27,023 nucleotides of DNA from an uncultured Dehalococcoidales bacterium (GTDB lineage: Bacteria; Chloroflexota; Dehalococcoidia; E44-bin15), in NCBI GenBank assembly GCA_964648675.1, contig CAZYLE010000004.1:1-27023 (forward strand), in the 5' to 3' direction. The notes below the pieces were generated by a model. That model worked only from the letters and a program-made list of their open reading frames with translations. It was not told the origin of the DNA and searched no databases. Position numbers and translations under genes: made by a program. Of the stretch, positions 1 through 25,059 are shown in pieces (position 1 is the stretch's first letter; each line of letters opens with the position of its first letter).

Positions 1-130
1 GAGGCCAACCGTGCGGTTTTGCATCGGTTATCGCAATGCGTAATCGCCAAACGTCCAAGGCACTTGGGCTGCCAAAGCGAATTTTAGACACGCTATCACG
101 GGTGTTGATGAAGCATCCGTTATTTTATTC

Positions 131-5014: not shown

Positions 5015-5068
5015 GTCTCCGCCTCACACTACACAGCTATAGCCCCTACCTGAACTTTATGCGCCCTA

Positions 5069-5812: not shown

Positions 5813-5871
5813 TTCCAAGACCCCCTCAACAAATTACAAAATAGTACGTACCACTTTATTCCTATAGGCCA

Positions 5872-6495
5872 TCACTGCTGCCGCTCGGCAAGCTCCATGC
5901 CCCTGCTGAAGGCCGTCATATTGGCCTCAAATTCCTTGAAGAAACTCTCTTGCAACACCGGCTCCAGCGACTCCTTGTCTAGCGGGAGGACACCAGAGCC
6001 AACAAGGGCGCCAATGAGGATTACATTGGCAAAGATAGGGTTTCCCATCCTTTGTGCTTCTTCGGTAGCATTTATTACCCATGTTTTAGCTGACAGCTCC
6101 TTGATGGTTTCCATGAGCTTATCCATGTTGGGATATTCAGCATCACCGCCGGTAACATCAATGGAATATATCGGCCTAGGATTCACTATAGTCATGACAT
6201 CGGGGTTACCAAACTGTCCCAGCATTCGCAAAGTTTCTACCGGCTCCATGCCGAGGATGACGTCAGCGCATCCGTCGGAGATAAATGGGCTACACTCAGT
6301 TTCCTTCGAAATTCTCATATGGCTCATGACGGCTCCACCCCGTTGGGACGCCCCATAGGTCTCCCCAATAGTCACATAGTAGCCTTGCCTTACCAGGGCA
6401 TTACCGATGAGCAGGGAGATTCTCACATTGCCTTGCCCACCAACGCCGGTAATTATTAGGTTAAGTGGCTCCTTCATTAGGGCTTTCGTCTTCAT
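5872..6495 (-). CDS. iorB: Indolepyruvate/aryl-2-oxoacid:ferredoxin oxidoreductase beta subunit
   Basis: GVGGQG, ETYGASQRGGAVMSHMRI, D..LGMEP.E and N..AF..G. ATGA overlap with iorA; RBS AGGAGG. Confidence 0.92.
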   Translation of the reverse strand: MKTKALMKEPLNLIITGVGGQGNVRISLLIGNALVRQGYYVTIGETYGASQRGGAVMSHMRISKETECSPFISDGCADVILGMEPVETLRMLGQFGNPDVMTIVNPRPIYSIDVTGGDAEYPNMDKLMETIKELSAKTWVINATEEAQRMGNPIFANVILIGALVGSGVLPLDKESLEPVLQESFFKEFEANMTAFSRGMELAERQQ

Positions 6496-8432: not shown

Positions 8433-8463
8433 ATTATTCACCTCCCTAATCTGCTGTCCACCA

Positions 8464-9576
8464 TTAAGCCAGGAGCTTATCAACCATGCTCTTCGATAGC
8501 CCAATATAAAATAGGTCGCTTTTATCGCCACTCATTTTAACGATTTCCTCTACTGCCCTTTTCTTCTTTAGCAGCGCCGCCTCTTTCAGATGAGCTAGAT
8601 TCTGAGGTGGCAATCGGTCAACCTCAAGTTTACCCTTGGCCTTGGCCATCTCCACAAGCTCCGCACCAACATTGGTGCGGACAATGACAGTGTTCCAGCC
8701 TTCGATTCCCTCAACCGAGCCCACCGAGATATCAGCAAGCTCCGATGTCATGTCCAGGCAGTACCTGCATGTTGACATAATATATCTCCTGATCTGGTCC
8801 AATGGAAAAGAGACAATGCCGAACCGGGTATAGGCATCGAATCTATCTGCCGGAGGGGGCGGAATGTCGAACTTGATTACCTGCGGCAAGTCTAGGTTCT
8901 CCTCAAGGAAGTGATAAAATCCATCAGGAGATAAAGCCCAGGTACAAAACAGTCCAATCACCAGCTTTACATTACCAATACTTACTCTGTTCTGTTGTGG
9001 AGCTTTCTTCATCTTGGCCAGAGCCAGTGCCTGGCAGGGCATGACAACTACTCCCACCCTCTCTTCACTATCTGTAGGAATGCCGTTTAATGCCGCTAAT
9101 ACAGGGCAAGCCATGTAATTGGAGCCAGCGCATTGAAGCACCTCTTCCATATTACGAGCCAAGAAAGCCCTTGGTGTCTTATCACCGGATGTTTTTGACA
9201 TAACTGCTCCCTCAATGAGTCCCTCTGCCAGCGCCAGGGACAAGAGTGTGGTTACCGTTCCACCATATTGGGCCCTTTCCTTTATGCGTGCATCCTTTGA
9301 CCTTGCCATCAATACTTCCTTGGCAGTGCCTATTTCATCATCGCTATATGGTTTCCCAAAAACTAGCTGGCTGAGCGCGTCCATATCGGTGTATGTCCGT
9401 GGGCAATATTGATAACATTGGCCCTCTGCCAGAGTGCAATTGTCCAGAAGCACTATTCTGCCTTTGTAGGGGACCAGGTATGGACAACCACCAGCACACG
9501 CACCACATAGGGTGCATAATCCGGCATCGATTACTTCGTTGAACAGCTCCTTCGAGCCTTTTACTCTCGTATCCAT
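8464..9576 (-). CDS. FrhB/FdhB-family (F420-reducing beta subunit) flavoprotein with N-terminal ferredoxin domain, FpoF-like architecture
   Basis: N-terminal CTLCGACAGGCP and CYQYCP, then FrhB motifs GGTVTTLL, GSNY, PCQ, IGLFC and CRYC.D..SELADISVG. Confidence 0.88.
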   Translation of the reverse strand: MDTRVKGSKELFNEVIDAGLCTLCGACAGGCPYLVPYKGRIVLLDNCTLAEGQCYQYCPRTYTDMDALSQLVFGKPYSDDEIGTAKEVLMARSKDARIKERAQYGGTVTTLLSLALAEGLIEGAVMSKTSGDKTPRAFLARNMEEVLQCAGSNYMACPVLAALNGIPTDSEERVGVVVMPCQALALAKMKKAPQQNRVSIGNVKLVIGLFCTWALSPDGFYHFLEENLDLPQVIKFDIPPPPADRFDAYTRFGIVSFPLDQIRRYIMSTCRYCLDMTSELADISVGSVEGIEGWNTVIVRTNVGAELVEMAKAKGKLEVDRLPPQNLAHLKEAALLKKKRAVEEIVKMSGDKSDLFYIGLSKSMVDKLLA

Positions 9577-9621: not shown

Positions 9622-10866
9622 TCACGAAAAATACTGTATTGTACCATCGGGAACCACCGCTACCCGAGCACCCTGGGGGAAGTCCTGTGTCAAAATATCC
9701 ATAACCTCCGACCAGGTCTTCACCCAGAGGGTATCAGGTATGGCCAGCCAGTCGGCAAAAGACTTCTCAATCTGTGGTGACAATACTATCATTCTTTTAA
9801 GCCAAGGTAGCTGGAAATTGACCGGGCTAAACAAGCGCCCTCTTATTGATTTGCCAAAACTGCCCAGCAGGTAATGCACTACCTGACCAGCAGGACAATC
9901 CATAATCAATACAAGGTCGCCACCCTTCTCCGCCAATAACTGTACCCCCATGAGCAGACCAACGATTGCTTCATTAGCCTTGCTGTAGTTATTGACTACT
10001 GCCACATCGATCTCCGAGGCAGCTTTAGTAGTATAGTGCGGCACGACAGATTTCAAGGCCTCATTGAACTCAGCCTGAGTTTCCCCAGCGAATGCGGCAC
10101 AAGGCTCCCCCTTGCCATTAATCATGGTATCGATTTTAAAGTCCAGCCCCACCATTCTGGCTGCCTCATTAAAGTCCCGTATCATAGGATTCTCAGTGTA
10201 TTTACCAGGCCCTACAATGTCTCCGTGTCCAGAGTATCTAGCTTCGATTTCTAGGCGGTGAAAGCCCTCGATTGAGTCCATTGAAGCTATACCAGGCAGG
10301 ATAATCTTCCCACCGCCGCCATATCCACTTTGGACATGCGGGACTATGGACCCAATGGCGATCTTAAGGTTACAGCTCATCACCTCAGCATTAACAGATA
10401 GTTCGGTGCCTTGCGACGTCCGTCCAACATATTTGCAGTTCTCATATGCGTTGTGATTGTAAACTGGGAACCTATCCAGTATTTCCCCTCCCAATTTCTT
10501 CTGGAAGTCCTCAAAGGTATGCGCGCTGTGGGAGCCGGTAGCGCAGATAAATCTGATGGCCGCATCAGGAATGCCTGCTGCCTCTAGCTCCTCGAGAACA
10601 TAGGGCACTAGCTCGGCAGCACGTGTGGGTCGGGAAAGGTCATCAAAGATTATAACCACTTCGTTCTTCCCCTGTGCCAACTCCCTGAGTGGCGGTGTGC
10701 CAATAGGCTTGCTGAAGGCAGCCCTTATCTGTTCTGACATCATGTGAGGGGCATTGTGCCCATTCATACGGCAGGGCAAAACTTCCCACGACTCGGGAAA
10801 TTCTAGCTGCCAATCTCCCCGTTCATACCACATTTGTCTGGGAACTGTCATAGTCCTGATGCCCAT
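9622..10866 (-). CDS. LarA-superfamily (nickel-pincer-type) 2-hydroxyacid racemase/epimerase-like protein
   Basis: PIGTPPL, DDLSRPT, ATGSH, NH, IVPH..SGYGGG.K.ILPG and I...H match the LarA N-terminal domain. The C-terminal domain is divergent. Confidence 0.85.
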   Translation of the reverse strand: MGIRTMTVPRQMWYERGDWQLEFPESWEVLPCRMNGHNAPHMMSEQIRAAFSKPIGTPPLRELAQGKNEVVIIFDDLSRPTRAAELVPYVLEELEAAGIPDAAIRFICATGSHSAHTFEDFQKKLGGEILDRFPVYNHNAYENCKYVGRTSQGTELSVNAEVMSCNLKIAIGSIVPHVQSGYGGGGKIILPGIASMDSIEGFHRLEIEARYSGHGDIVGPGKYTENPMIRDFNEAARMVGLDFKIDTMINGKGEPCAAFAGETQAEFNEALKSVVPHYTTKAASEIDVAVVNNYSKANEAIVGLLMGVQLLAEKGGDLVLIMDCPAGQVVHYLLGSFGKSIRGRLFSPVNFQLPWLKRMIVLSPQIEKSFADWLAIPDTLWVKTWSEVMDILTQDFPQGARVAVVPDGTIQYFS

Positions 10867-10926
10867 CTTATTTCTCCCTTTCTACGTCGGAAGAGCGTTA
10901 CCCTTATTAGCAATATATACGAAATC

Positions 10927-11715
10927 TTATTTTTTTAAGTTTGAGACCCTAGCTGTTATGGCTGCGCCTAAGGCTGTCACTATATGGGGATGTGGAGGTA
11001 CAAGTAGCCGAATATTCAACTCATGTTCTACAGCCTCGACGAGCCCGTTATTAAGGGCACCACCGCCACAGATAGCACACGGCTCTACCAACCTGACCTT
11101 CTTAGACAGTGAGAATATCTTGTCGGCTAAGGCTTTGTTGACCCCAGCGGCGATATCCTCTTTAGGGATGCCCTCAGCAACCCTGGTAATAGCCTCTGAT
11201 TCGCCAAAAACAGCGCATCCCGTGCTGAAAGTGACGGGATTTTTAGACTGAAGAGAAAGAGGGCCAAAGTCCTCCAAATCTATTCGCAACACGTTGGCAA
11301 TAAGCTCGACAAATTGGCCGCTTCCGGCGGCGCACTTTTCACTAATGGTGAAGTTGGCCACCAGCCCCTCCCCATCTATGCGTATTAATTTAACGGACTG
11401 CCCTGCCACATCGATAACTGTCCTCGCTGAGGGGAAGATGCTATTTATACCTCTGGCAGTGCAAACTATATCACTAACTCTCTGACTGGCGAAGTAGACG
11501 CTGCCAGCACCGGTGCCGGTGGCTACGGTAGCGGTAATATGATCCAGAGCTAGGTTAACCTCTGTCAGCAGCTCCTCTCTTATCCTCTCGGCTGTCGTGC
11601 GGTAATTGGCGCCGGAAAGTATCACGCAGTAAGCAGAAAGCTCGTTATCTCTAGTTATAACTCCCTTGCTATACGCCGAGCCGATGTCGATACCGATAAA
11701 CCAAGACATTTGCAT
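10927..11715 (-). CDS. BadF/BcrD-type ATPase activase, degenerate delta-like subunit
   Basis: GIDIGS...K, DVAGQSVK, EKCAAGSGQF, GCAVFGESE, GGGALN and ALGAA. Confidence 0.88.
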   Translation of the reverse strand: MQMSWFIGIDIGSAYSKGVITRDNELSAYCVILSGANYRTTAERIREELLTEVNLALDHITATVATGTGAGSVYFASQRVSDIVCTARGINSIFPSARTVIDVAGQSVKLIRIDGEGLVANFTISEKCAAGSGQFVELIANVLRIDLEDFGPLSLQSKNPVTFSTGCAVFGESEAITRVAEGIPKEDIAAGVNKALADKIFSLSKKVRLVEPCAICGGGALNNGLVEAVEHELNIRLLVPPHPHIVTALGAAITARVSNLKK

Positions 11716-11722
11716 TGCTTCC

Positions 11723-12565
11723 TCACTTGAAGAAGGTGGCCTTTTCTAAACGGCGCTGCTTTGCCGGTGCAGGCTCACCCCTGGCTATTGCCGCCAATGA
11801 GAGTTCCCTTGCCAGTATAGCAGCGCCAAGTGCGCCGGTTATAAGTGGGTCTTCAGGAACAAGAAGTTCGCAGCCCAGATAATCATTCATCGCTCTAATG
11901 ATGCCACGGTTTTTTGCCACCCCTCCAGTAAGCACCACATCAGGTTCTATTTTCAGCCTCCGTGCTAATCCGGCTACTCTGCTCGCCACAGCATCGCTAA
12001 GGCCGGCTAGGATATCTTCCAACTTTTCTCCCTCAGACAAGCGAGCTACTACCTCTTGCCGGGCGAAGATAGTGCATAAGTTGCTAATCTGGACTTTCTT
12101 GGTAGACCTTAAGGAAATATCTCCCATATCCTCTAGCTTAATATTCAGCGCCGCAGCGATGACTTCCAGGAACCTGCCTGTGCCAGCGGCACATTTATCG
12201 TTCATAACGAAGTCGACCAACTTGCCCTTATCGATCTTCATACACTTAGCATCCTGTCCGCCGATATCAATAGCTGTCCTGACACTGGGAAACAAACTGA
12301 ATACCCCCCTGGCATGACAAGTCAGTTCGGTAATCTGACGGTCGGCGAAAGGAACATTGAAACGGCCATAGCCTGTGGCTACAACGTATGAAATCTCATC
12401 AAGCTGCAAATTGGCTTGCCCCAACGCCATTTGCATAACCTCATCGGCTAACTGGCGATGTTCAGGACCAGTGGGGCCTTTGACGACTGACAGAATGTTA
12501 TCATCCACATCCATAAGCAGAATCTTAGTCATAGTGGAACCTATGTCGACCCCAGCAAAATACAA
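11723..12565 (-). CDS. BadG/BcrA/HgdC-type ATPase activase, canonical subunit
   Basis: GVDIGSTMTK, TGYGR, TELTCHARG, DIGGQDAK, MNDKCAAGTGRFLE, CTIFA..E and GGVAKN. Start is TTG 12565 or GTG 12571. Confidence 0.92.
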   Translation of the reverse strand: MYFAGVDIGSTMTKILLMDVDDNILSVVKGPTGPEHRQLADEVMQMALGQANLQLDEISYVVATGYGRFNVPFADRQITELTCHARGVFSLFPSVRTAIDIGGQDAKCMKIDKGKLVDFVMNDKCAAGTGRFLEVIAAALNIKLEDMGDISLRSTKKVQISNLCTIFARQEVVARLSEGEKLEDILAGLSDAVASRVAGLARRLKIEPDVVLTGGVAKNRGIIRAMNDYLGCELLVPEDPLITGALGAAILARELSLAAIARGEPAPAKQRRLEKATFFK

Positions 12566-12587
12566 GTGCACCTCTCAAACTGTATTT

Positions 12588-13754
12588 TTAGCTAATAGTT
12601 TCCAGGAAGGCTTCAACCCTTGTTCTTAACGGTGCCAGGGCTCCTTGCGCATAGTCGTATTCTATGTAGGTGCTGGGAATACCAATGCTGTCGAAGTAGT
12701 CTTTGAGTGAAGGAATTTCAAAAGCGAATGGGTCACAATAGCGGACGAGCAAGAATATTGCTCCATTGACTTTCCATTCTCGAGCGAAGTCTTTCAGATA
12801 ACCAAATCGGTTTCCCAAATCTTCCAGATAGTCTTTCTTAGTCTCACCAAGAACAGTCTCTCTGAATGTGCGAGCGCAGGTTATCTCCTCCAAATAGTAC
12901 TGAGCCAGTCCATCCAATGGATCATCGGTTAGCTTTACCTCAGCCCTGAAGGGTCTAATGCCCCCACAGCTCTCGTCTAACACCACATTTGCCCCGTTCT
13001 CGAATATCTGCATTATCTCGGTATCATCCAGCGTGCTGCTCCAGAGGATAAGCCGCACTGGTTTCCTTTCAGGCCCATCGGTACGGTCTTTGACCTCGCC
13101 AATAACTTGGGCTAGTAACTCATTGCCTTCGTCCACAGGCAGACTCATCAACGCCTTTACTACCTGGAGGATCTCCGTTCCCGAGATAAGAGGCGTCTCG
13201 GGCTTCGTTTGTTCGTACAGTTCTCTTACCAAGGCTCGCTGTTGATTATGAGATTGGATGGCTGCCTTGAGTCTGTCTGAGGAAAGCTCCTTTTTAGTGA
13301 AAGCCTCCAGTGTCTTCTTCAAATCGTTTAATTGCCCTTTGAAGTACTCCATAGCCTCCGGTCGAACCGTGCCAGGTATATCCATGAAATGGAAATAGGG
13401 ATAGCTTATATAAGATTCCCACAGACGAGCCGTTTTTTCTTGAGGGTCACAAGAATGAGCTACAATTATCCCGTCCAGGAAATCATCTCTGGCTTTGAGT
13501 GCGCAATCAAAGCAGCTACGAATGATAGGGCAAAACGAGGTAGGCAACGCTCTATCTGCCTCGGTGACCGGCTCCTTGATATCTCCGTATGTTCGGTACG
13601 GGATCACACCAAGCGCAGTAAGCATCTCTACAGGCACATAGACGCAGGGATAACCTATGACCTTCTTGCCTTCCGCCTTAAGCTCTTTGACTCTGCGGGA
13701 CCGGTTTCGGTAAATCTCCTTGGCTTTACTAAGCCCTTTGCTTTTATCTGCCAT
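12588..13754 (-). CDS. 2-hydroxyacyl-CoA dehydratase / class I benzoyl-CoA reductase subunit (HgdB/BcrC/BzdN-like)
   Basis: HGD-D family pattern: GYPCVYVPVEM..A.G..P, FCP, HSCD, RYCDP and TRVEAFLE. Confidence 0.88.
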   Translation of the reverse strand: MADKSKGLSKAKEIYRNRSRRVKELKAEGKKVIGYPCVYVPVEMLTALGVIPYRTYGDIKEPVTEADRALPTSFCPIIRSCFDCALKARDDFLDGIIVAHSCDPQEKTARLWESYISYPYFHFMDIPGTVRPEAMEYFKGQLNDLKKTLEAFTKKELSSDRLKAAIQSHNQQRALVRELYEQTKPETPLISGTEILQVVKALMSLPVDEGNELLAQVIGEVKDRTDGPERKPVRLILWSSTLDDTEIMQIFENGANVVLDESCGGIRPFRAEVKLTDDPLDGLAQYYLEEITCARTFRETVLGETKKDYLEDLGNRFGYLKDFAREWKVNGAIFLLVRYCDPFAFEIPSLKDYFDSIGIPSTYIEYDYAQGALAPLRTRVEAFLETIS

Positions 13755-13790
13755 TTTCTACAACTCACCAAGCTGAAATTTGCTGTTTTC

Positions 13791-15134
13791 CTACCAATCG
13801 AAACCCTCTTGCTTCCTTACTCTTCGGTAATACTCCATTGTCTCCTCGAATGGTTCCGCCCTGGCTATGGCATCTTCGGGGTCAAACAACCGAAGGTCTA
13901 CGATATCTCCTTCAATTGTTAGTGAAGGCACCTTTAGCCTTTCCATTATCAAGTTTGCCACATACGGCAAATGTGTGGAGGCGCTGCGGCAACTGATGAG
14001 GGGGTGGAGGAGCGCCCCATCGCATTTCCATTCTCTTACATACTTCAAGTATGGATATGCCAAGGCGCCGGCGGGCACATTTTGTTCCAACGCGTCTTCA
14101 TAATAGCCAATAAAAACCTGGAGACTGAATCTGGTGATTTTCTCCAGAGGGTTGCTAACCTCACTCAGGTCAAGAGGAATAGGCGGTCGGTAGCCAAAAC
14201 TCTCGACGACGAAGTTCCATCCCCTCTCGGCCAATCTATCGAAGAATCCCAAGCTATGCCACGGCGGAAGCTCGGCGAATACCAGTCGATATCTCTCCTC
14301 GTCAATGGCTCCTACATGGTTTTTCACCCTATCCCTCACCTCTTCATACATATCCCGATAGCATTGCAACGAATGCTTCAGATCGCCCATCAGAAACAGC
14401 GCTGCAGGCATTGCACTCCAGAAATCTCTGCTATGCATGGGGCAGGGTTTTGCCTTGCGCAGTTCGCTTATTTCATGCCACAGCCGGTTAACCTCTATCA
14501 TAAGGTCTACTGTCTCATCCAATTTATCCCAGTCCATTTTCCTGCCAGTGATACGTTCGACGAAGTTAATAAACTCACCGAGATGCTGAACTCCTAAATG
14601 AACCATCCGTTCATATGAGCCTTCCATGAACAGTTCCTTCACTCCAGGCATTGGCGCTTCCAATGTCCATACCGGAACATCCATATAGCGGCCTAATGAC
14701 TGGAACCACTTATACCTAGCATCACAAACAGCAGCCGAAGACATCAGGAATATGGGTTTCGGCATGCCTCCTAGAGGCGCCTCCGCAGGTATTTCGCCTT
14801 TCAGTTCTCTCATCATCTTCGAGGTATAGCCAAGAGTAGCCCGGCTATAACCACACAGGTGGGTAGGAAACCCGTCAGCATCGGCATATTCCAGGTAAGG
14901 TTGGGCAAATCCCGTAGCGGCAAGGGCAGCACCGTAATTCTCTGGATATACTACTTCCAAATCCATGGCTTTGAGTATAGGGTCACCATAATACCAGTTA
15001 AGCATAGCCCACACTGTGGGTTTGCCCGCTCTCATAGCTTCAACGCTCTTTAGGTACGTCTCATTTACCTTGGCTCGAAGCGGGTACATTGATTTCAGCC
15101 GGTTTATCGCCTTCTTCTTTTCCTCGACAGCCAT
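13791..15134 (-). CDS. 2-hydroxyacyl-CoA dehydratase / class I benzoyl-CoA reductase subunit (HgdA/BcrB/BzdO-like)
   Basis: YPENY.A, LCGY, GG.PKP, VCD...KW, SCR and EGD.VD.R. Three putative cluster cysteines. Confidence 0.88.
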   Translation of the reverse strand: MAVEEKKKAINRLKSMYPLRAKVNETYLKSVEAMRAGKPTVWAMLNWYYGDPILKAMDLEVVYPENYGAALAATGFAQPYLEYADADGFPTHLCGYSRATLGYTSKMMRELKGEIPAEAPLGGMPKPIFLMSSAAVCDARYKWFQSLGRYMDVPVWTLEAPMPGVKELFMEGSYERMVHLGVQHLGEFINFVERITGRKMDWDKLDETVDLMIEVNRLWHEISELRKAKPCPMHSRDFWSAMPAALFLMGDLKHSLQCYRDMYEEVRDRVKNHVGAIDEERYRLVFAELPPWHSLGFFDRLAERGWNFVVESFGYRPPIPLDLSEVSNPLEKITRFSLQVFIGYYEDALEQNVPAGALAYPYLKYVREWKCDGALLHPLISCRSASTHLPYVANLIMERLKVPSLTIEGDIVDLRLFDPEDAIARAEPFEETMEYYRRVRKQEGFDW

Positions 15135-15620: not shown

Positions 15621-16301
15621 GTGACCAAAACACAGAAAGTCTATCTGCTTGTCTTTATCATATTCGCCATCGCCTACATCGGCACCGTGCCGATTCAACC
15701 CTATCCAGGAAGCTTTGTCATCAAGGCGATACCAGTGCTGACTCTCTCCGTCCTAGCGTTGACAAAGATTGCCGGGTTGAAGGGCAAATTGCTGTTTGCC
15801 GCCCTATTGCTGTCCGCCGGTGGAGACATAGCTCTGGCACTGGGCGAGGGGCAGTATTTCATTATTGGCCTGGGATTATTCCTCGTCGCCCACATTGTGT
15901 ATATTGTGGCATTCTCCAGGGACTTCAAAGCGCAGAAATCGAGGTTACTCATCGTAGTCCTTCTCGTTGCCTACGCTGTAGCCATAGCTGTCATCATGAC
16001 CCCGTCGCTCAAAGAAATGACGATACCGGTCTACGTGTATATTTTGGTTATAACGCTGATGGGCATTTTCGCCGCATTCAGAGGTTCGAAAAGCAACCTC
16101 GTTCTTTATGGAGCTCTCTCTTTTATCGTCTCTGACTCAATCCTGGCCATCAACAAGTTCATGGTTGCCGTGCCGGCATCCGACTACCTTGTCATGATTA
16201 CCTATTACCTAGCTCAATTGCTCATAGTCTATGGATTTGTGAAAGATGAGCGAGAAAGGGAAGACAACACGGAGGTAGTCAAGGATGAAGTCAAAATGTG
16301 A
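15621..16301 (+). CDS. yhhN: YhhN/TMEM86 family lysoplasmalogenase-like membrane protein
   Basis: K.IPV, S.GGD..L, F..GL..FLVAHIVYI.AF, PV.VY...I..M, GA..F..SD..LA.NKF and M.TYY.AQ.LI. GTG start follows GAGGAGG. Confidence 0.9.
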   Translation: MTKTQKVYLLVFIIFAIAYIGTVPIQPYPGSFVIKAIPVLTLSVLALTKIAGLKGKLLFAALLLSAGGDIALALGEGQYFIIGLGLFLVAHIVYIVAFSRDFKAQKSRLLIVVLLVAYAVAIAVIMTPSLKEMTIPVYVYILVITLMGIFAAFRGSKSNLVLYGALSFIVSDSILAINKFMVAVPASDYLVMITYYLAQLLIVYGFVKDEREREDNTEVVKDEVKM

Positions 16302-16449
16302 AGCTTGCCCAGGGCGCAAGCATGCGGAAAGGAAGCCAAATTCGATAATCAGCAGGATATGGCGGTGGCATACCAATTGGTGTCCCGGTTGGAAGGCATA
16401 TCAGAAGGAGTTAGCTGAGCAACTGCAAGAACCAGGTACAGAGCGGTGA
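16285..16449 (+). CDS. Small 54-aa Cys/His/Trp-rich protein, absent from the ORF track
   Basis: MKSKCEACPGRKHAERKPNSIISRIWRWHTNWCPGWKAYQKELAEQLQEPGTER. GGAGGT lies 8 nt before the ATG, the ORF overlaps the yhhN stop, and a hairpin follows. Confidence 0.7.
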   Translation: MKSKCEACPGRKHAERKPNSIISRIWRWHTNWCPGWKAYQKELAEQLQEPGTER

Positions 16450-16457
16450 GCCGCTCT
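16440..16457. terminator. Hairpin between the convergent small ORF and radical SAM gene; possible terminator
   Basis: AGAGCGG-TGAG-CCGCTCT, a 7-bp stem without a clear U-tract. Confidence 0.4.
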
Positions 16458-16577
16458 ATAAATGGAGCATCATTCTTCACTTGTGACGCCGTCTGATTGC
16501 GCCTGGCAGAGCTCGCCAAGGTCGTTTTACCGCAGGCACCATTGGGACTGTACCAAAACCGGGTTTCGCGCTCATAT

Positions 16578-18014
16578 TTACTTGTCGGCCAACCGTCTCA
16601 GAATGTCCCAGAAGGCTCCCCTGTATCCATTTTTAATGGCGTTCACCAGTACTATATTGTCATCATAGTTGTAATTCTTATCACCCGCCTCCGGGTTGTG
16701 GAGGAAGAAGCGCTCGTCATCGCCAACAAGTCGAGATAGGTATTGAAGAGCATCATCGCCCAGATGTTGGGAAAGATAGAATAGCGGAGCAGTGAATTCG
16801 TCGTTGCCCTCGATAATACCGTGTAGATTGACGTTACCCTCCAGTGGACCCTCCCGATATATCATGTCTGCCAGCTTGGTTTTGGAGTAGACCCGCACTC
16901 CCATGGCCGCCCCAATCCGGTCTGGCGAGATTTTCTTCATAGTCTCGACCGTTTCTTTCAGAGACTCCCTGGTCTCCCCAGGACCTCCCAATAACAAATC
17001 GTACATGCAGACGAGTCCCTCTTCACGGCAACTCCTGGCCGTGCTCCGCACATCTTCTACGCAGAAGTCCCTGCCCAAAGCCTGAAGCATCCGGTCGCAA
17101 CCAGAATCTACACCAAAGTTGATGCCAACACACCCCGCTCTCTTCATCAGTGAGGCCAACTCTCTGGAAAAGGGTGCCGGTGACGCATAGGTGTACCACC
17201 TAACCTTCTCTCCCAATCGCCTACTGATTATCTCGGTGCACACATCTTCGGCATGGGAATGGGGTATATTGAACTCGCTATCGCAGATGTGGAAGTAGTC
17301 TACTCCCTGGTTTAGCAGCGCCTCTATCTCATCACCTACGTTCCTGGGAGAGCGCAAGCGAACCTTCCTACCCTTGCTCAATGGGTCCACACAGTAAATG
17401 CAGCCCTTGGGACAACCACGTTTGGTCTCCAAGCAATTCATACCGCCTTCATGGAAGTAGCGTCGATTATCTATGAACGTCCTTCGCGGCGCAGGCATTT
17501 TCGCTAGGTCCAGGTAGTGGGCAGGATTACAGCGGAAACCATCCCCAATGCGATATACCAGGGCAGGGATATCACAAAAGTCGCCTTGTTTTGTCAGCTT
17601 CATTAGGAGAAGGGGCAGGGAATATTCCCCCTCACCCCATACTCCAATGTCAAGGTCACAGTAATTCAGAATAGCCTTGGGCATCACTGAGAAACCCGCT
17701 CCGCCCAGGATGATAGGAGCCGATGTGTTTGTCTTAATGCACTGGATGATGTCCCGTAGCAGGGGTAAAAAAGACCTCTTGGTGGCGAAGGAGCTATCAT
17801 CGGTGTTGCGAAAGGTTACCATGACAGCGAATACATCACGGCTGGCAAAGCATTCTTCTATGGCCCTGATGTAGTCCGGTGAGAAGCACAGGTCCAGGAT
17901 CTCTACCTCGAACTCGCTCTGCTGAAGGGCTTGAGCCAGATAGTCGAGGGCCAAAGGGGCTACCGGGGGCTGCATCAGGTTTGAGTTTACCAGAAGGACC
18001 TTCCTTTCTTTCAT
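16578..18014 (-). CDS. Cobalamin-dependent (class B) radical SAM methyltransferase, TsrM-like
   Basis: N-terminal B12 domain (PPVAPLALDYL, TFRNTD, GGAGFS.MP, GEGE), then ETKRGCPKGCIYC, DSEFN, NFGVDSG and C-terminal GYRGAFW. Start ATG 18014. Confidence 0.88.
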   Translation of the reverse strand: MKERKVLLVNSNLMQPPVAPLALDYLAQALQQSEFEVEILDLCFSPDYIRAIEECFASRDVFAVMVTFRNTDDSSFATKRSFLPLLRDIIQCIKTNTSAPIILGGAGFSVMPKAILNYCDLDIGVWGEGEYSLPLLLMKLTKQGDFCDIPALVYRIGDGFRCNPAHYLDLAKMPAPRRTFIDNRRYFHEGGMNCLETKRGCPKGCIYCVDPLSKGRKVRLRSPRNVGDEIEALLNQGVDYFHICDSEFNIPHSHAEDVCTEIISRRLGEKVRWYTYASPAPFSRELASLMKRAGCVGINFGVDSGCDRMLQALGRDFCVEDVRSTARSCREEGLVCMYDLLLGGPGETRESLKETVETMKKISPDRIGAAMGVRVYSKTKLADMIYREGPLEGNVNLHGIIEGNDEFTAPLFYLSQHLGDDALQYLSRLVGDDERFFLHNPEAGDKNYNYDDNIVLVNAIKNGYRGAFWDILRRLADK

Positions 18015-18384
18015 TTCCCTCTTTTCAAAGTCTATTGCCTTCGAGTATGAATTATTCCCTCTTGCTGTCAAGCTACATCACATCTAGTATTACTTGCTAT
18101 TATATATAGATGTCAATAGCCTTCGCCTGAATGATTTGTATTTCATAAAGCGTGAAGACCCTATAAGCATTGTCAACTGAGCATCCTTTCTTTGACGAAC
18201 AACATCGGTAGGCACTACATTGAAAAGGGAAGGCCAAGATGGAGACACCAGAGGCAAGGAACAGCTATAATAGTAGCGCCCTAGAATAAAGCATATAATC
18301 CTTAAGATACATCTGACCCCTATTTTCGTTATATTACACAGCATAAGCAGGCAAATATCGAGACACTTTTTCGTTTGAGATATT

Positions 18385-18699
18385 ATGAATTCCAGGCTTA
18401 GAGTAGGAATCGATGTCGGCGGTACATTCACCGATTTGGTAGCCTTTGATGAAGAGAGTGGTGAGTCCTTTCTCATTAAATGGCCGTCAACCCCCCGCGA
18501 CCCCAGCGAAGGAGTGATCCACGCATTCAAATATCTTAGGGAAAGAAGCGAACGAGCGATCTCCGTATTCGTTCACGCATCAATTGTTGGAAGCAACATC
18601 TTTTTAGGTCAGTTGGGTTTGAACATTTCCAAGGGAGCCCTGGTCACGACTAGTGGATTCAGAGACTTGTTGCAAATCGGCCGTCAAAGGAGAGCCTAA
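18385..18699 (+). pseudogene. Truncated hydantoinase A / 5-oxoprolinase family N-terminal fragment
   Basis: GIDVGGTFTD, K.PSTP.DPS.GV and L.TTSGFRD.L.IGRQ.R. TAA after 104 aa; family-like VYNPF continues just past the stop, then similarity ends. Confidence 0.85.
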
Positions 18700-18822
18700 G
18701 TATACAATCCTTTTTTGAATAGGGAATCACAGAACATATTTAATAGCGACATCATCTGGAGGAAAACAACTTTACATAATCTAGCGACTGCCAAATCGCC
18801 GAGCTGCTGGGTGTGAAAACAT

Positions 18823-18947
18823 CCTCCCACCCCTTGAGGGAGGGAGGTCCCTCCGCTGATCATCACCCCAGCTCTCTCCTCGCCAGTCTCCGGAGGCGAC
18901 TCGCCTTGGTGAGAGTCGAGTCTTCGACCTTCAAGGGAGAGGGGTGA
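18823..18947. repeat. Nested palindromic elements (CCCTC/GAGGG-type hairpins)
   Basis: CCTCCC...GGGAGG at 18823-18847. TCACCCC (18863) pairs with GGGGTGA (18947) and TCTCC with GGAGA, enclosing smaller hairpins. Confidence 0.55.
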
Positions 18948-18966
18948 AATTCGGTTTGATCCCCTT

Positions 18967-18997
18967 GGTGGGTTTCGCTGTGCTCCACCCACTCTAC
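18967..18997 (-). repeat. GTAG-type REP, 31-nt family
   Basis: The minus strand reads GTAGAGTGGGTGGAGCACAGCGAAACCCACC, matching the 19108 copy in length and flanks. Confidence 0.6.
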
Positions 18998-19030
18998 GCG
19001 TTCCGTGACACCTCAAGGCTGCTCAAAGAG

Positions 19031-19080
19031 GTAGTTGCCCAATTTATTGGGCAGTCGAGCCTGATAAATCAGGCAACTAC
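19031..19080. repeat. GTAG-type REP inverted doublet (REPIN-like)
   Basis: GTAGT-TGCCCAA-TTTA-TTGGGCA, then an inverted GTAGT-TGCCTGA-TTTA-TCAGGC with compensatory stem changes. Confidence 0.75.
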
Positions 19081-19107
19081 ACAAATTGAGGATGGTGTTA
19101 AATATAA

Positions 19108-19202
19108 GTAGGGCGGGTGAAATGAAATGGAACCCACCTTCCCAAAATAGATATGGCAATGGTGGGTTTCGACCTTCAGCTGAAAGGCTGCACCCACTAT
19201 AC
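19108..19202. repeat. GTAG-type REP inverted doublet, GGGTG...AACCCACC family
   Basis: GTAGGGCGGGTGAAATGAAATGGAACCCACC (19108-19138), and an inverted GTATAGTGGGTG...GAAACCCACC (19161-19202) with an internal hairpin. Confidence 0.6.
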
Positions 19203-19330
19203 TACTTTGTTTTTTATTTACCCGATATTCTTTCACTTTTCCTCTTCCTTATCCATAACGCCCATAGATAACTACAAGAGCTATGGTAAGGTAGAACCAA
19301 GAAAGTGCCCGGCCTAGCAGAATTTTCTCA

Positions 19331-20869: not shown

Positions 20870-21130
20870 ATGGATATTACTATAACAAAAGGACGCCCGA
20901 TCATAGTCGATGCAGCAAGATGCACCGGGTGCCTCATCTGTGAGCTGCGCTGCTCGCTGAGGTTCGAGAAGGCCTTCAACCCATCGAAGGCTCAAATAAG
21001 GATCCGCCGCCTTGCTGGCGCCGATAACGAGTACGAGATCTCCTTCAGCGACAGGTGTGACAATTGCGGCATTTGTGTCCGGTACTGCCCTTATGGTGCT
21101 TTGATCCAGGAGAAGAGAGGGGGAGCCTGA
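20870..21130 (+). CDS. 2x[4Fe-4S] ferredoxin-like subunit partnered with the AOR
   Basis: CTGCLICELRC and CDNCGICVRYCPYGA; GAGGT RBS; 1 nt gap to the AOR gene. Confidence 0.88.
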   Translation: MDITITKGRPIIVDAARCTGCLICELRCSLRFEKAFNPSKAQIRIRRLAGADNEYEISFSDRCDNCGICVRYCPYGALIQEKRGGA

Positions 21131-21131
21131 G

Positions 21132-23051
21132 ATGGACCTTACCGGATATGCCGGGCATATCCTTCACGTAGATCTCACCCACGGCCAGGTTAGTAAAGAG
21201 CCCCTCGATCCCGAACTGGCCAGAGAATTCATCGGGGGCTGGGGAATTACCAACAAGCTGGCCTATGACCTTATACCGCCTAACACTGACCCGCTATCTC
21301 CAGAGAACTGCATTATCATCGGCACCGGCCCTTTCTCTGGCACCATAGTCCCTGGCTCTTCAGAGCTGTTCATCACAAGTCGGTTCCCGCTAAACGGCTC
21401 CTATGCTACCGCCTGCGGTGGGGGTAACTTCGCCCTGATGCTCAAGCTATCGGGATATGACTTTGTGGTCATCAGTGGCCGAAGCCCAAAGCCGGTATAC
21501 CTCAAGATCGAGGATGATAGTGTCGAGCTGTGCGATGCCCAAGACCTGTGGGGTATGGATGTCTTCGACACGGTGGACGAACTGAGGCGGCACCATGAAC
21601 CCTGTAGCGTCATACCCATAGGGCCGGCGGGAGAGAACCTGGTGAAGATTTCGGTAACCTCCATCGATAAGGGAGGCACGCTGGGAAGTGGCGGCCTGCC
21701 CGCAGTGATGGGCTCCAAGAAGCTCAAGGCCGTAGTAGCCGTTCAGGGGACAAAGGGCATACGGGTGGCCCACCGACTAAAGCTCCAAAGGCTGGTAGAC
21801 GAGATGCTGGAGCGCATCATGAGTTATCGACTGCGCCCTACCCTGCTTGAAGGCGGCTTCTTCGGCATGACCGCCGCCTGGACGCAACTTAGGGCAAAAA
21901 TATCCGAAAATTGGAGCCAGATATCACTCATCTCCGCGCCCGATGTAAAGGATATACATTACAGGTCGAGGAAGCCTCTCGCTTGCGCCAGCTGTCCTAC
22001 CGCTGACAAGGAGCTCAACAGGCTCGAAGAAGGACCCTACGCCGGTATGGTAACCTACATGACTCACTACGGTGCTATGGGAACCTTCGGCGGCACTGAT
22101 ATGGTGGAGGAATACAGCCGCTCCATCAAGTTCCTGGATGCTGCTAATAGATATGGGATTTGCCTCTTCTCTTTCGGCATTGTTAGGGAACTGATGGCCT
22201 ACCTGTACCAAAAAGGGACTATCACCAAAGAGGATACGGGTGGCATAGAACTTGCTGATGACTTCGATACCACCATGAAGCTGATGAAAATGACGGCTTG
22301 TCGGGAAGGCTTTGGCGCTGTTCTCGCCGAAGGCATCCTGGGAGCCGCCAGCAAGATTGGTCGCCAAGCTGAGGCACTAGCTGTTCACATCAAGGGCTAC
22401 AACGTATTCGGCGACCCCCGGCTGACAGGAATGGGTACAGCCACCGTGGCCCAGATGGTGAACCCGGCACGCTGCGGTGGTTGCGCCAGCATAGCCGGGA
22501 GCCTCGGCTCTGCCTCATATAACATGGGAAGGCCTACCGAGCAGTGGGTGAAGGAGGCCAAAAAAATAGAGATCCCGAAAGACGCAATTGAGAGTATCTT
22601 CACCCCAACCTCTTTCAACGCGGGGCGACTAAACAGATATGCCGAGGACTGGTATTCCCTCTCCAATTGCCTGGGTCGGTGTCACCGGCTCTATATCAAC
22701 AGGTTCTTCGACGCTGGAACCCAGGCTCAGCTCTACACCGCCATCACCGGAGTTGAGGCCACGCCTGCTGAACTCTATGAAGTAGCAGAGAGAGCGTGGA
22801 ACCTGTTTAAGTTGCTCAATGTCAGGGCCGGATTCAGCCGCAAGGATGATAGGGCTCCCGAGGCGTGGTTCAAGCCACTAAAGGGGGAAAACATGGAATT
22901 TCCCTTGATGGATTACTACAAAACCACTGCCCTGACCAAAGACGACATTGATAGAATCCTGGATGACTACTATGATGAAAGAGGCTGGGACCTAAAAAGC
23001 GGTACTCCTACACCTGAGAAGCTGAGAGAGCTAGGCCTGCCTTTAAGCTAA
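21132..23051 (+). CDS. Aldehyde:ferredoxin oxidoreductase family protein, divergent
   Basis: GY.G.IL.VDLT, DPLSPEN, LK..GYD..VI.G.S.KPVYL, IGPAGENLV, AVMGSKKLKA and LD.YY..RGWD...G.PT.EKL.ELGL. Confidence 0.9.
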   Translation: MDLTGYAGHILHVDLTHGQVSKEPLDPELAREFIGGWGITNKLAYDLIPPNTDPLSPENCIIIGTGPFSGTIVPGSSELFITSRFPLNGSYATACGGGNFALMLKLSGYDFVVISGRSPKPVYLKIEDDSVELCDAQDLWGMDVFDTVDELRRHHEPCSVIPIGPAGENLVKISVTSIDKGGTLGSGGLPAVMGSKKLKAVVAVQGTKGIRVAHRLKLQRLVDEMLERIMSYRLRPTLLEGGFFGMTAAWTQLRAKISENWSQISLISAPDVKDIHYRSRKPLACASCPTADKELNRLEEGPYAGMVTYMTHYGAMGTFGGTDMVEEYSRSIKFLDAANRYGICLFSFGIVRELMAYLYQKGTITKEDTGGIELADDFDTTMKLMKMTACREGFGAVLAEGILGAASKIGRQAEALAVHIKGYNVFGDPRLTGMGTATVAQMVNPARCGGCASIAGSLGSASYNMGRPTEQWVKEAKKIEIPKDAIESIFTPTSFNAGRLNRYAEDWYSLSNCLGRCHRLYINRFFDAGTQAQLYTAITGVEATPAELYEVAERAWNLFKLLNVRAGFSRKDDRAPEAWFKPLKGENMEFPLMDYYKTTALTKDDIDRILDDYYDERGWDLKSGTPTPEKLRELGLPLS

Positions 23052-23059
23052 TAGCGCCG

Positions 23060-24961
23060 CTATACCTCCCGCCCCAGGCGCGCCCCGTCATGGATGGCGT
23101 CAAGTATACGCCCCGGCTTGGCGCAGTCGCCAGCAAGGTGTATCTCACCGACCTTACCCGCTAAGGCGTTGGCCAGCTGGTCATTGGGGCTAGCACCGGC
23201 GGCAAGAACTATGGTATCAGCTTCAAGCGTTTGCCGCTTCCCCTGGCTATCGATTAAGACCAGGCCATCGTCATTTATCGCCTCATATTCTTTGACATCG
23301 GTGATTAACGTGACGCCATTCTCCTTCAATCGGGCGAGGAGAGCATGACGGTTACTGGGAAACATCTTAGAAGCCATTTCATGCCCCCTCCGGACCACAG
23401 TCACCTTCTTGCCCTGCTGAGAGAGGAAATCGGCCGTCTCACAGCCTACCAGCTCTCCACCGATAACCACTACCCTTCCGCCAGTATCGACACCGCCCGA
23501 CAGGACGTCTACAGCAGTCATTACTTTGCTTGTATTCATACCTTGGATTTCAGGTATCAGGTGCACTGATCCAGTGGCGAGGATGACTGCGTCCGGCCTC
23601 TCACTCTCTACCAGCTCTATTGTGACCTCGACACCGGTCTTGACATGGACGGTGCTTTTCTCAAGCTGGTGGGCCAGGTATCGTCTCAGCAGTGTCAACT
23701 CGTGTTTATATGGGGGCACCGCCGCCGCTATGAGCTGTCCCCCCAGTTCGTGCTGCCTCTCATATAGGGTGACTTTATGGCCCCGCTGGGCGGCCACACG
23801 TGCCGCCTCCATGCCAGCGGGGCCACCGCCGGCCACCATAACCTTCTTCACCCTGGCAGCAGGTTCTATAGTCAACTCTGCTTCCCTGCCAGCGAAGGCG
23901 TTTACCGAGCACTTTAGGCCGAGACCGGCAAATCCAGTCTCAAAGCAGGCGTTGCAGCTTATGCAAGGTACGATATCTTCAGTTCTCCCTGTGGCTGCCT
24001 TTTGTGGCCAGTAAGGGTCGGCGATGAGCTGGCGACCGACAGCCACCATGTCCGCCTTTCCCTGAACCAGCACCTCCTCCGCAACCTGAGGCGTCCTGAA
24101 GCGGCCGACGGCGATCACCGGCACACTCACCACACGTTTAATAGCCTCGGCCAGGGGGACAAAGGTGCCTTCGGACTGCTCCGGTCCAGGGCTTCCGGTG
24201 AACCCCTGACCAGCCATGCCCCCAAGGGAGATGTGTAGAACATCAGTCCCGGCCTTCTCCAACTCGGTGGCGAACTGGGCGCTTTCGTCCAGTGTAATCC
24301 CTCCAGGTATGTCCTCCCAGGCTCCCAGGCGGTAGAAGATGGGGTAGTCGTCGCCCACCACCACCCGCATGGCGGAAACACACTGTGTTCCGAAACGTGT
24401 CCGTCGGGCAAGGTCTCCACCATATTCGTCGTCGCGCCGGTTGGTGGCCGGGGAGAAGAACTGGCAAGCAAGGTAACCATGAGCCCCATGAACTTCAACA
24501 AAGTCAAAACCTGCCCTCTTCACATTGGTGGCGGCCTGGGCAAACCTGGAGATTATGGTCTCGATCTCCGATATGGTGAGACTACGCTCCTCAGCGGTGT
24601 CTGAGGGTGCCACCGGCTCGCCACGCCTGTCCTGCGGAGTACCAGTTCCGGCGGGAAACATGTTGCCATGCCATAGCTGTACGCCTATCCTTGCCCCGAC
24701 CTGGTGGACGTCAACGATGAGGGGGCGCAATCCATCGACAAATGCGTCCACACTTCCCGGTCGACCCCAGGCATCGTCGGTGGCGAATAGGTCCACCGAG
24801 GTGGCGGCCACGATGATGGTGCCAACGCCTCCCCTGGCCCGCTCCAGGTAATAGGCCCTCGCTCGAGGGCTTCTCATCCCTACCCCCACCTGCATCGGCG
24901 GCATCACCATCCGGTTCTTGAACTCCACCCCTCTTATAGTTATCGGCTCCAAGAGCTTCAT
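23060..24961 (-). CDS. Old Yellow Enzyme TIM barrel + Fe-S + FAD/NAD(P) domain oxidoreductase (2,4-dienoyl-CoA reductase / enoate reductase-like)
   Basis: NRMVMPPM, HGAHGYL.CQF.SP.TNRRDDEYGG, CISCNAC..CSVN, GGGPAGMEAA, GGQL..A..PP and GGELVGCE. Confidence 0.93.
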   Translation of the reverse strand: MKLLEPITIRGVEFKNRMVMPPMQVGVGMRSPRARAYYLERARGGVGTIIVAATSVDLFATDDAWGRPGSVDAFVDGLRPLIVDVHQVGARIGVQLWHGNMFPAGTGTPQDRRGEPVAPSDTAEERSLTISEIETIISRFAQAATNVKRAGFDFVEVHGAHGYLACQFFSPATNRRDDEYGGDLARRTRFGTQCVSAMRVVVGDDYPIFYRLGAWEDIPGGITLDESAQFATELEKAGTDVLHISLGGMAGQGFTGSPGPEQSEGTFVPLAEAIKRVVSVPVIAVGRFRTPQVAEEVLVQGKADMVAVGRQLIADPYWPQKAATGRTEDIVPCISCNACFETGFAGLGLKCSVNAFAGREAELTIEPAARVKKVMVAGGGPAGMEAARVAAQRGHKVTLYERQHELGGQLIAAAVPPYKHELTLLRRYLAHQLEKSTVHVKTGVEVTIELVESERPDAVILATGSVHLIPEIQGMNTSKVMTAVDVLSGGVDTGGRVVVIGGELVGCETADFLSQQGKKVTVVRRGHEMASKMFPSNRHALLARLKENGVTLITDVKEYEAINDDGLVLIDSQGKRQTLEADTIVLAAGASPNDQLANALAGKVGEIHLAGDCAKPGRILDAIHDGARLGREV

Positions 24962-25059
24962 CGTTCTCCTCCTTGCCCATGCCTTATCGCTCCCAGTCTA
25001 TCATAGGCTGTCTCTGGCTTCAAATATGCCAATGCTAGAAAACATTAGATGACGTCGTA

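Follow-up and report, generated by a model that had tools for sequence, protein, structure and literature searches.

A TsrM-like cobalamin-binding radical SAM protein in an uncultured Dehalococcoidales bacterium and its family of candidate non-radical methyltransferases

TsrM is the sole cobalamin-dependent methylase with the radical S-adenosylmethionine (SAM) fold that has been shown to work without radicals, and reviews leave open whether others do so (PMC9204698, PMC12931638). In TsrM, SAM methylates cob(I)alamin and serves also as a base, and Arg69 occupies the cobalamin's lower axial position, where it favors heterolytic cleavage of the Co-C bond with loss of CH3+ (PMC8992657, PMC9204698, PMC13331322). 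Glu273 sits on the [4Fe-4S] cluster's unique iron, so that reductive cleavage of SAM is blocked (PMC8992657, PMC9204698). A third position, that of Glu236, is described in a 2026 review as polar only in TsrM and as taken by a hydrophobic (aromatic) residue in radical methylases (PMC12931638). The radical class B methylases are hydrophobic both under the corrin and beside the cluster, as exemplified by Trp76 and Trp215 of TokK (PMC12931638, PMC13331322). Outside thiopeptide clusters, TsrM-like enzymes were not found to be described in the literature that we searched. Here, we analyze a 478-residue B12-binding radical SAM protein encoded on the minus strand of a 27,023-nucleotide stretch, called the window below, of contig CAZYLE010000004.1 from an uncultured Dehalococcoidales bacterium, and we compare it and its relatives with TsrM and with other cobalamin-dependent radical SAM enzymes.

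Likeness to TsrM and the proposed mechanism

A phmmer search against PDB sequences returned Kitasatospora setae TsrM (6WTE/6WTF) as the top match, with an E value of 1.4e-66; the later matches were AprD4 (2.7e-17) and then MgmA/QCMT (1.6e-15). At the sequence level, the match to TsrM is far beyond what chance would be expected to give. With AlphaFold2, a family alignment of 37 sequences gave a model (mean predicted local distance difference test score of 94.2, predicted template-modeling score of 0.92) that Foldseek matched to chain A of TsrM (6wtf_A) with an E value of 4.9e-43 and a template-modeling (TM) score of 0.93 when normalized to the query or 0.82 when normalized to TsrM. The other B12 radical SAM structures (MgmA, AprD4, CysS, TokK, and OxsB) gave TM scores of only 0.64 to 0.70, and the C-terminal domain is therefore TsrM-like too, beyond the two cofactor domains. 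Domain order and fold are shared with TsrM. So are Arg69, the Glu of the DSEFN motif, an acidic residue beyond the Cys motif (Asp210 in place of Glu236), and, at the C terminus, NYxDN and GA[FY]W. Taken as an HMMER segment of its own, the RGAFW match to TsrM is weak (3.6 bits), but the fold match over the full length and the conserved GA[FY]W of the clade lend it support.

The likeness extends to the residues around the cofactors. The phmmer alignment pairs Arg69 of the query with Arg69 of TsrM and D245-S-E247 of the query with D271-S-E273 of TsrM, and it places an acidic residue at the Glu236 position. By alignment, all three residues that set the TsrM cofactor environment apart are thus present in the window protein, namely, the Arg under the corrin, the Glu at the unique-iron position, and the acidic residue between corrin and cluster. 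Among the SAM contacts of TsrM as listed in PMC9204698, residues D335, L379, E385, and R412 lie opposite D303, L341, E347, and R374 of the query, each identical or conservatively replaced. A first-pass annotation of this DNA had proposed a resemblance to TsrM on the basis of five motifs (PPVAPLALDYL, TFRNTD, GGAGFSVMP, DSEFN, and RGAFW). All five are present in the translation, and the corrin Arg and the cluster-ligand Glu both align (Arg69/Arg69 and Glu247/Glu273). The resemblance stands insofar as TsrM is the nearest characterized relative; it does not amount to orthology, as set out below.

As the cofactor-environment residues of TsrM and its overall fold are retained, we infer a polar mechanism. 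On balance, sequence and model lean toward a TsrM-type, two-step methyl transfer through methylcobalamin to a nucleophilic substrate, with release of S-adenosylhomocysteine (SAH) and no formation of 5'-deoxyadenosine (5'-dA). In the first step, SAM would methylate cob(I)alamin; in the second, a nucleophilic substrate atom would receive CH3+ from methylcobalamin, and an sp2 carbon in an electron-rich ring is the most plausible acceptor. With Glu247 keeping SAM off the cluster, SAH would be formed and 5'-dA would not.

The open reading frame (ORF) is translated without a break from ATG to TAA. The ATG at 18014 is supported as the start because homolog alignments begin at query residues 2 to 5, whereas a start at the alternative TTG (18071) would lengthen the protein by 19 residues, which are found in no homolog. 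The product has both features that define the class B radical SAM superfamily, a B12-binding Rossmann domain with its Gly-Gly motif and a radical SAM core with its CX3CX2C motif (Table 1). We surveyed individual residues in 244 full-length relatives, comprising 120 close homologs and 124 diverse representatives. All 120 close homologs have Cys201, Cys205, and Cys208, and at each of the three positions at least 123 of the 124 representatives have a Cys; the C-terminal residues Y448, N449, Y450, N453, G466, A467, and W469 are likewise conserved in the family. At positions that are at least 95% conserved in the 119 closest homologs, the window protein shows zero deviations. With every strongly conserved family residue kept, the intact protein looks functional. 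Its acidic pI of 5.7 speaks, if weakly, against an RNA substrate.

The differences from TsrM are substantial. The query has 478 residues against about 575, which makes it about 100 residues shorter, and it is gapped opposite TsrM residues 160 to 203, 343 to 348, and 421 to 511 (about 40 extra TsrM residues). Identity over aligned columns is about 37% when measured against P0260, a TsrM ortholog of 578 residues. The window protein does not show the full TsrM architecture of about 575 residues, to which an extended C-terminal domain and a Lys346-bearing insertion belong. Thiostrepton is made by actinomycetes, whereas the window and the nearest relatives of its protein come from Dehalococcoidia-type genomes. 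One more distant family representative stems from Actinomycetota metagenome-assembled genomes (MAGs).

Scores on the curated NCBIfam models delimit the protein further. On TIGR04428 (tryptophan 2-C-methyltransferase), for which the cut-off is 500 bits, the query reached 283.7 bits in two separate stretches, whereas P0260, a genuine TsrM ortholog recovered in our exhaustive search, reached 844.3 bits. Together with the low identity and the shorter length, this rules out orthology to TsrM. On TIGR04072 (lipid biosynthesis B12-binding/radical SAM protein of the ladderane-cluster type; cut-off of 360 bits), the query scored 261.6 bits and aligned end to end over residues 5 to 472. Proteins of this type, the function of which is so far a proposal (PMC13459092, PMC2649909), are similar in length to the query (about 460 residues) and have in common with it CX3CX2C, the GG motif, the invariant R-N-x-D loop, and the majority of the conserved core positions. 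They differ in having Val or Ile for Glu247, Tyr for Asp210, and GPLW for GA[FY]W, in missing the NYxDN loop, and in forming a separate clade. Membership in TIGR04072 is likewise ruled out, as the score is below the cut-off and the query carries Glu247, Asp210, and GAFW and not the clade signature; that signature (Val/Ile, Tyr, GPLW) was derived in the present analysis and is not a published definition.

Two further comparisons concern enzymes that share the general architecture. Among the B12 radical SAM proteins related to the query is BzaD, for which methylation of an aromatic sp2 carbon in anaerobic dimethylbenzimidazole biosynthesis has been predicted and called "reminiscent of TsrM" (PMC12931638). 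On its model, TIGR04385, the query scored 168.5 bits over residues 15 to 362, against a cut-off of 450 bits, and neither bza or cob genes nor a cobalamin riboswitch lie nearby, so that identity with BzaD can be set aside. TokK, CysS, and MgmA/QCMT have in common with the query an N-terminal cobalamin-binding Rossmann domain, a radical SAM barrel, and base-off cobalamin motifs. They are much more distant, however, with phmmer E values of 3e-05 to 1.6e-15, TM scores of 0.64 to 0.67, and Foldseek identities of 16 to 19%, and at the sites of TokK Trp76 and Trp215 the query has Arg and Asp, respectively.

Extent of the family and residues that separate its clades

Although the first-pass annotation had regarded the gene as an orphan, its product is one member of a large family, with at least 3047 homologs at E values of 1e-10 or lower in a word-indexed protein search. 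The best 120 of these share 57 to 89% identity with the query, and the few named ones among them come from Dehalococcoidia or Chloroflexota MAGs. A single-protein scan of a genome collection gave two close matches (89 to 90%), both in "uncultured Dehalococcoidales" MAGs. In an exhaustive search of representatives of 50%-identity clusters, 1021 were recovered at E values of 1e-30 or lower; the named close ones come from uncultured Actinomycetota and similar MAGs, and TsrM itself ranked at about the 140th place with 226 bits. Judged from these searches, the family of about 480-residue proteins is distinct and widespread, with TsrM as its nearest characterized relative.

Comparison of residues between the 244 full-length relatives separates two clades. 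The R69-N70-x-D72 loop is invariant in all of them and in both clades. The alignment of Arg69 with its TsrM namesake, as the first-pass annotation had suggested, is real, but the residue therefore does not discriminate TsrM-like proteins from the rest. Position 247 does: all 120 close homologs and 50 representatives, TsrM included, have Glu there, whereas 69 representatives have Val, Ile, Leu, or Ala. Position 210 varies along with it, being Asp in all 120 close homologs, Asp or Glu in 48 of the 50 Glu-clade representatives, and Tyr in 52 of the 69 Val/Ile-clade representatives. When residues 69, 210, and 247 are read together in 98 full-length representatives, the combination R-[D/E]-E occurs 43 times and R-Y-[V/I/L/A] 46 times, with few mixed cases. 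Toward the C terminus, NYxDN and GA[FY]W are found both in the Glu group and in TsrM; the Val/Ile group is gapped at the former and has GPLW at the latter. Near the loop, residue 65 is the first of a Gly-x-Thr-x-Arg cobalamin-binding motif that lies downstream of the His loop (17808-17822). The window protein has Met at this residue and its two closest relatives have Val, whereas TsrM and almost all remaining members of the family have Ala or Gly.

A neighbor-joining tree sets the two groups cleanly apart and places TsrM as a long branch inside the Glu group. Independently of the tree, BLAST with the TsrM ortholog P0260 gave a median of 192 bits against the Glu group and 139 bits against the Val/Ile group. 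Sampled Val/Ile-clade representatives score 359 to 389 bits on TIGR04072, at or about its cut-off, and by these sequence criteria the TIGR04072-type clade is the sister group of the Glu clade. Clustering with lipid methylases, which the first-pass annotation had named as an outcome that would speak against its proposal, is not seen: the putative lipid methylases form the sister group, with Val or Ile in place of the Glu. As far as we can tell, the covarying pair of Asp/Glu210 with Glu247, as opposed to Tyr with Val/Ile, may be a new predictor.

The sister clade has swapped two of the three TsrM residues for hydrophobic ones typical of radical enzymes, which yields a testable sequence rule, and the family supplies candidates for TsrM-type chemistry outside antibiotic gene clusters. 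It could tentatively be speculated, although we would not yet count it as probable, that the Glu/Asp family of about 480 residues represents a second, much larger branch of TsrM-type non-radical methyltransferases, located outside biosynthetic gene clusters, and that in Dehalococcoidia and further uncultured anaerobes it C-methylates a nucleophilic substrate as part of core metabolism. The covarying pair would in that case predict from sequence whether the chemistry is polar or radical throughout this clade of B12 radical SAM enzymes. Should the rule hold, the scope for polar methylcobalamin chemistry on carbon nucleophiles would be wider, and an unrecognized methylated metabolite or cofactor in Dehalococcoidia-type anaerobes would be indicated. 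Should it fail, with 5'-dA being made, the TsrM residues would be insufficient to switch off radical chemistry.

Alternative explanations

Several observations weigh against a polar mechanism, and most of them would fit a conventional class B radical SAM methylase or another radical enzyme. In such an enzyme, Glu247 would move, SAM would bind the cluster, the 5'-deoxyadenosyl radical would take a hydrogen atom, and an unactivated carbon would receive a methyl radical from methylcobalamin. Such an enzyme could act on a lipid or on some other hydrophobic metabolite, which is also what the sister TIGR04072 family is presumed to do. The CX3CX2C motif and every SAM-binding motif required for radical chemistry are intact. 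The TIGR04072 model aligns along its full length with a score near that of the TsrM model, most conserved positions are common to the Glu and Val/Ile clades, and Arg69 is invariant also in the presumably radical clade of TIGR04072-type proteins. Ordinary radical SAM enzymes commonly have a Glu at the "GGE" position, OxsB Glu363 being an example (PMC8992657), and the unique-iron ligand of Mmp10, Tyr115, is able to dissociate and so permits radical chemistry (PMC9692996); for that reason, sequence by itself leaves room for SAM cleavage. In addition, the TsrM SAM contact Lys346 falls in a 6-residue insertion that has no counterpart in the query, the neighbor-joining tree is crude (distance based and midpoint rooted), and the family is as yet uncharacterized. 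The convergent neighbor in the window's lineage, a YhhN-family membrane protein (PF07947), could also be taken to favor such an enzyme. Against a radical enzyme stand the TIGR04072 score, which remains below the cut-off, the clade-separating positions, which follow TsrM (Glu247 and Asp210) and not TIGR04072 (Val/Ile and Tyr), and a fold match that is far better to TsrM than to any radical B12 enzyme. Moreover, no acyl carrier protein, FabF, or other lipid-synthesis genes adjoin the gene in the window or in the 93 related loci surveyed below. Taking both sides into account, we regard a radical enzyme as a serious competitor to polar methyl transfer but a rather unlikely one.

That the protein is a true functional ortholog of TsrM, methylating C2 of free L-tryptophan for a pathway outside thiopeptide biosynthesis, seems improbable to us. 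TsrM is the best match by both sequence and fold, and the cofactor-environment residues and the NYxDN and GA[FY]W motifs are common to the two; a 61%-identical homolog (P0089) even bears the label "Tryptophan 2-C-methyltransferase," which we take to be an automatic label, as its source gives no basis for it. An indolepyruvate:ferredoxin oxidoreductase (IOR)-like pair is encoded 8 kb away, but in other lineages IOR genes are not linked to the radical SAM gene, and the window holds no thiopeptide genes. We know of no pathway in such organisms that uses 2-methyltryptophan. The split TIGR04428 score, little more than half of the cut-off and far from that of the real ortholog, the identity of about 37%, the missing 100 or so residues with the TsrM insertions (that of Lys346 among them), the lower TsrM-normalized TM score, and the roughly 140 representative clusters that lie nearer to the query than TsrM all point away from such an ortholog. 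A cobalamin-dependent radical SAM enzyme that lacks methylase activity altogether and instead carries out a rearrangement, cyclization, or dehydration, as OxsB, BchE, HpnJ, and AprD4 do, would be more improbable still. Such non-methylases are scattered among the B12 radical SAM enzymes and bear no clear marker in their sequences (PMC12931638), and AprD4 is the second-best PDB sequence match; it is nonetheless far more distant than TsrM (TM score of 0.69), and the Arg/Glu/acidic environment fits the one enzyme known to cycle between methylcobalamin and cob(I)alamin.

Genomic context in the window and in relatives

Table 1. Positions of the protein motifs and neighboring features in the window
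Feature	Nucleotides	Residues	Strand	Remarks
Coding sequence of the B12-binding radical SAM protein	16578..18014	1-478	-	ATG 18014; TAA 16578-16580
PPVAPLALDYL motif		16-26	-	Present in the translation
Cobalamin-binding Rossmann domain	17607..17963	18-136	-	Pfam PF02310, 46.4 bits (cut-off 32.1)
TFRNTD loop after strand 3	17799..17816	67-72	-	Arg69 codon 17808-17810; aligns with TsrM Arg69 under the corrin (6wte)
GGAGFSVMP, base-off Gly-Gly motif	17679-17705	104-112	-	G104 and G105 invariant in the family
Radical SAM core domain	16941..17426	197-358	-	Pfam PF04055, 75.8 bits (cut-off 29.5)
CPKGCIYC, CX3CX2C [4Fe-4S] motif	17391..17414	201-208	-	Cys201, Cys205, Cys208
Asp210	17385..17387	210	-	Aligned with TsrM Glu236, the polar residue between cobalamin and cluster
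DSEFN ("GGE" motif)	17268..17282	245-249	-	Glu247 (17274-17276) aligns with TsrM Glu273, the unique-iron ligand
C-terminal motifs in common with TsrM	16608..16676		-	NYNYDDN 16656-16676; RGAFW 16608-16622, residues 465-469
YhhN-family membrane protein gene	15621-16301		+	Pfam PF07947; downstream of and convergent with the radical SAM gene
49-residue Cys-rich ORF	16285-16431		+	Overlaps the YhhN stop; no Pfam match
10-bp GC-rich hairpin	16437..16460		.	Terminator-like on both strands; between the radical SAM gene and the YhhN/49-residue unit
Promoter-like TTGACA-16 nt-CATACT	18044..18071		-	Lies 30 nt upstream of the ATG; matches by consensus only
Hydantoinase/oxoprolinase A remnant	18385-18723			First ~113 codons (Pfam Hydant_A_N); 72% identical to the intact gene of relative L008
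Two HGD-D and two BcrAD/BadFG genes, then LarA-like homolog	9622-15134		-	Operon; LarA-like is a nickel-pincer nucleotide (NPN)-dependent 2-hydroxyacid racemase homolog
FrhB-like gene	8464-9576		-	After the LarA-like homolog
IOR-like α/β pair, fused LUD/4Fe-4S/CCG protein, LUD-domain protein	5872-8531 and 2840-5818		-	LUD proteins of the lactate-utilization type
AOR	21132-23051		+	
OYE/FadH-type Fe-S flavoenzyme	23060-24961		-	Best models BaiCD, bilirubin reductase, and mycofactocin-type OYE, all below cut-off

The radical SAM gene forms a transcription unit of its own and is convergent with the YhhN gene. A purine-rich AGAGGGAA lies immediately 5' of the ATG. Promoter-like sites number 7 in the region against 3.2 expected, and the hairpin between the convergent units is a consensus match only, the hairpin count being no higher than in shuffled sequence. 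An Rfam scan of the window gave no cobalamin riboswitch and no other RNA element. The small Cys-rich ORF is kept in L008, a relative in which it is 65% identical and in which the radical SAM protein is 69 to 70% identical to that of the window; it may encode a small metal-binding protein cotranscribed with YhhN. On its other side, the radical SAM gene is preceded by 1.3 kb of noncoding or decayed DNA without a credible gene. Beyond the hydantoinase/oxoprolinase A remnant, no credible ORF is found at 18724-19330, and in comparison with the Dehalococcoidales MAG L002 the window is without about 4.2 kb, which hold the rest of HydA, HydB, and a 239-residue gene. Directly upstream of the radical SAM gene, the stretch at 18385-19330 has the look of a deletion scar.

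A minus-strand block at about 2.8 to 15.1 kb contains the two HGD-D and two BcrAD/BadFG genes, the LarA-like and FrhB-like genes, the IOR-like αβ pair, and the LUD/CCG proteins. In this block, the first-pass annotation had seen an aromatic-catabolism neighborhood, in which methylation might be a catabolic activation step. That reading of the block is a loose one, as none of the BcrAD or HGD-D proteins of the window reaches the cut-off of any benzoyl-CoA reductase model, so that aromatic catabolism is only one of its possible readings. Their best assignments are "acyl-CoA dehydratase activase" and, below its cut-off, "double-cubane reductase," and they could form a 2-hydroxyacyl-CoA dehydratase or double-cubane-type reductase system and not a ring reductase. 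The IOR-like α subunit scores 588 bits against a cut-off of 651; the IOR-like pair, the LUD proteins, and the LarA homolog suggest metabolism of 2-oxo and 2-hydroxy acids. In a close relative, L001, one of the two ATPase genes is missing from the HGD-D/BcrAD operon. A functional tie between the radical SAM gene and this adjacent operon was rejected, given the separate transcription units, the absence of the operon from most relatives, and the benzoyl-CoA reductase scores. A role in catabolic activation likewise finds no support in synteny, as the gene stands in its own unit and its neighbors differ between lineages.

Beyond the block, the window encodes a thiolase, an AOR, and an OYE/FadH-type flavoenzyme. 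The GC content at 21000-25000, where the latter two genes lie, is 0.53 to 0.61, compared with 0.46 to 0.50 elsewhere in the window, and this region may have been acquired horizontally. As the first-pass annotation had noted, the window lacks thiopeptide genes and genes for other ribosomally synthesized and posttranslationally modified peptides (RiPPs): no RiPP or thiopeptide domains were found in its proteins, and none were recognized among the recurrent neighbors in the related loci. Nor do bza or cob genes occur near the radical SAM gene in the window.

Neighborhoods in relatives were surveyed in 8 long contigs obtained by exact protein look-up and in 80 metagenome loci; neighboring ORFs were clustered, and recurrent ones were annotated. 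No universal neighbor was found in the 93 related loci, and arrangements are lineage specific only. Four recur (> and < giving the direction of a gene): moaE > α/β-hydrolase > radical SAM, with overlapping stop and start codons and a convergent DUF3786 gene; MeaB > ADP-forming acyl-CoA synthetase > radical SAM > flavin adenine dinucleotide (FAD) protein (PF21688); OYE > radical SAM > DUF1284; and, in the window's own lineage, hydantoinase < radical SAM > YhhN <. As the neighbors vary between lineages, no substrate can be deduced from context. A dedicated secondary-metabolite pathway is disfavored by this variability, and the combination of a stand-alone gene with changing neighbors points to a general cellular role and not to a dedicated biosynthetic cluster or to the adjacent catabolic operon.

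In several relatives from the Dehalococcoidia, the radical SAM gene is translationally coupled to an upstream α/β-hydrolase gene (Peptidase_S9/S15-like), namely, in loci L003, L004/L005, L012, and L016 (gene at position 8001 or 6001; upstream in L016). The hydrolase gene overlaps moaE, and DUF3786 converges from downstream. By called genes, L010 and L011 have the coupled arrangement too; L006 has it without moaE. Literature on DUF3786, TIGR04072, and TsrM homologs yielded nothing useful on the radical SAM family. In the MeaB lineage (L015, L019, L022, L029, L032, and L035), the gene comes after MeaB and an ADP-forming acyl-CoA synthetase pair, with the PF21688 FAD protein downstream in most loci. 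The recurrent closeness of two cobalamin enzymes could be coincidence. In L013, the radical SAM gene follows a complete B12-dependent acyl-CoA mutase operon, which comprises the mutase, its B12-binding subunit, MeaB, a PrpD-like protein, and two CoA-transferases.

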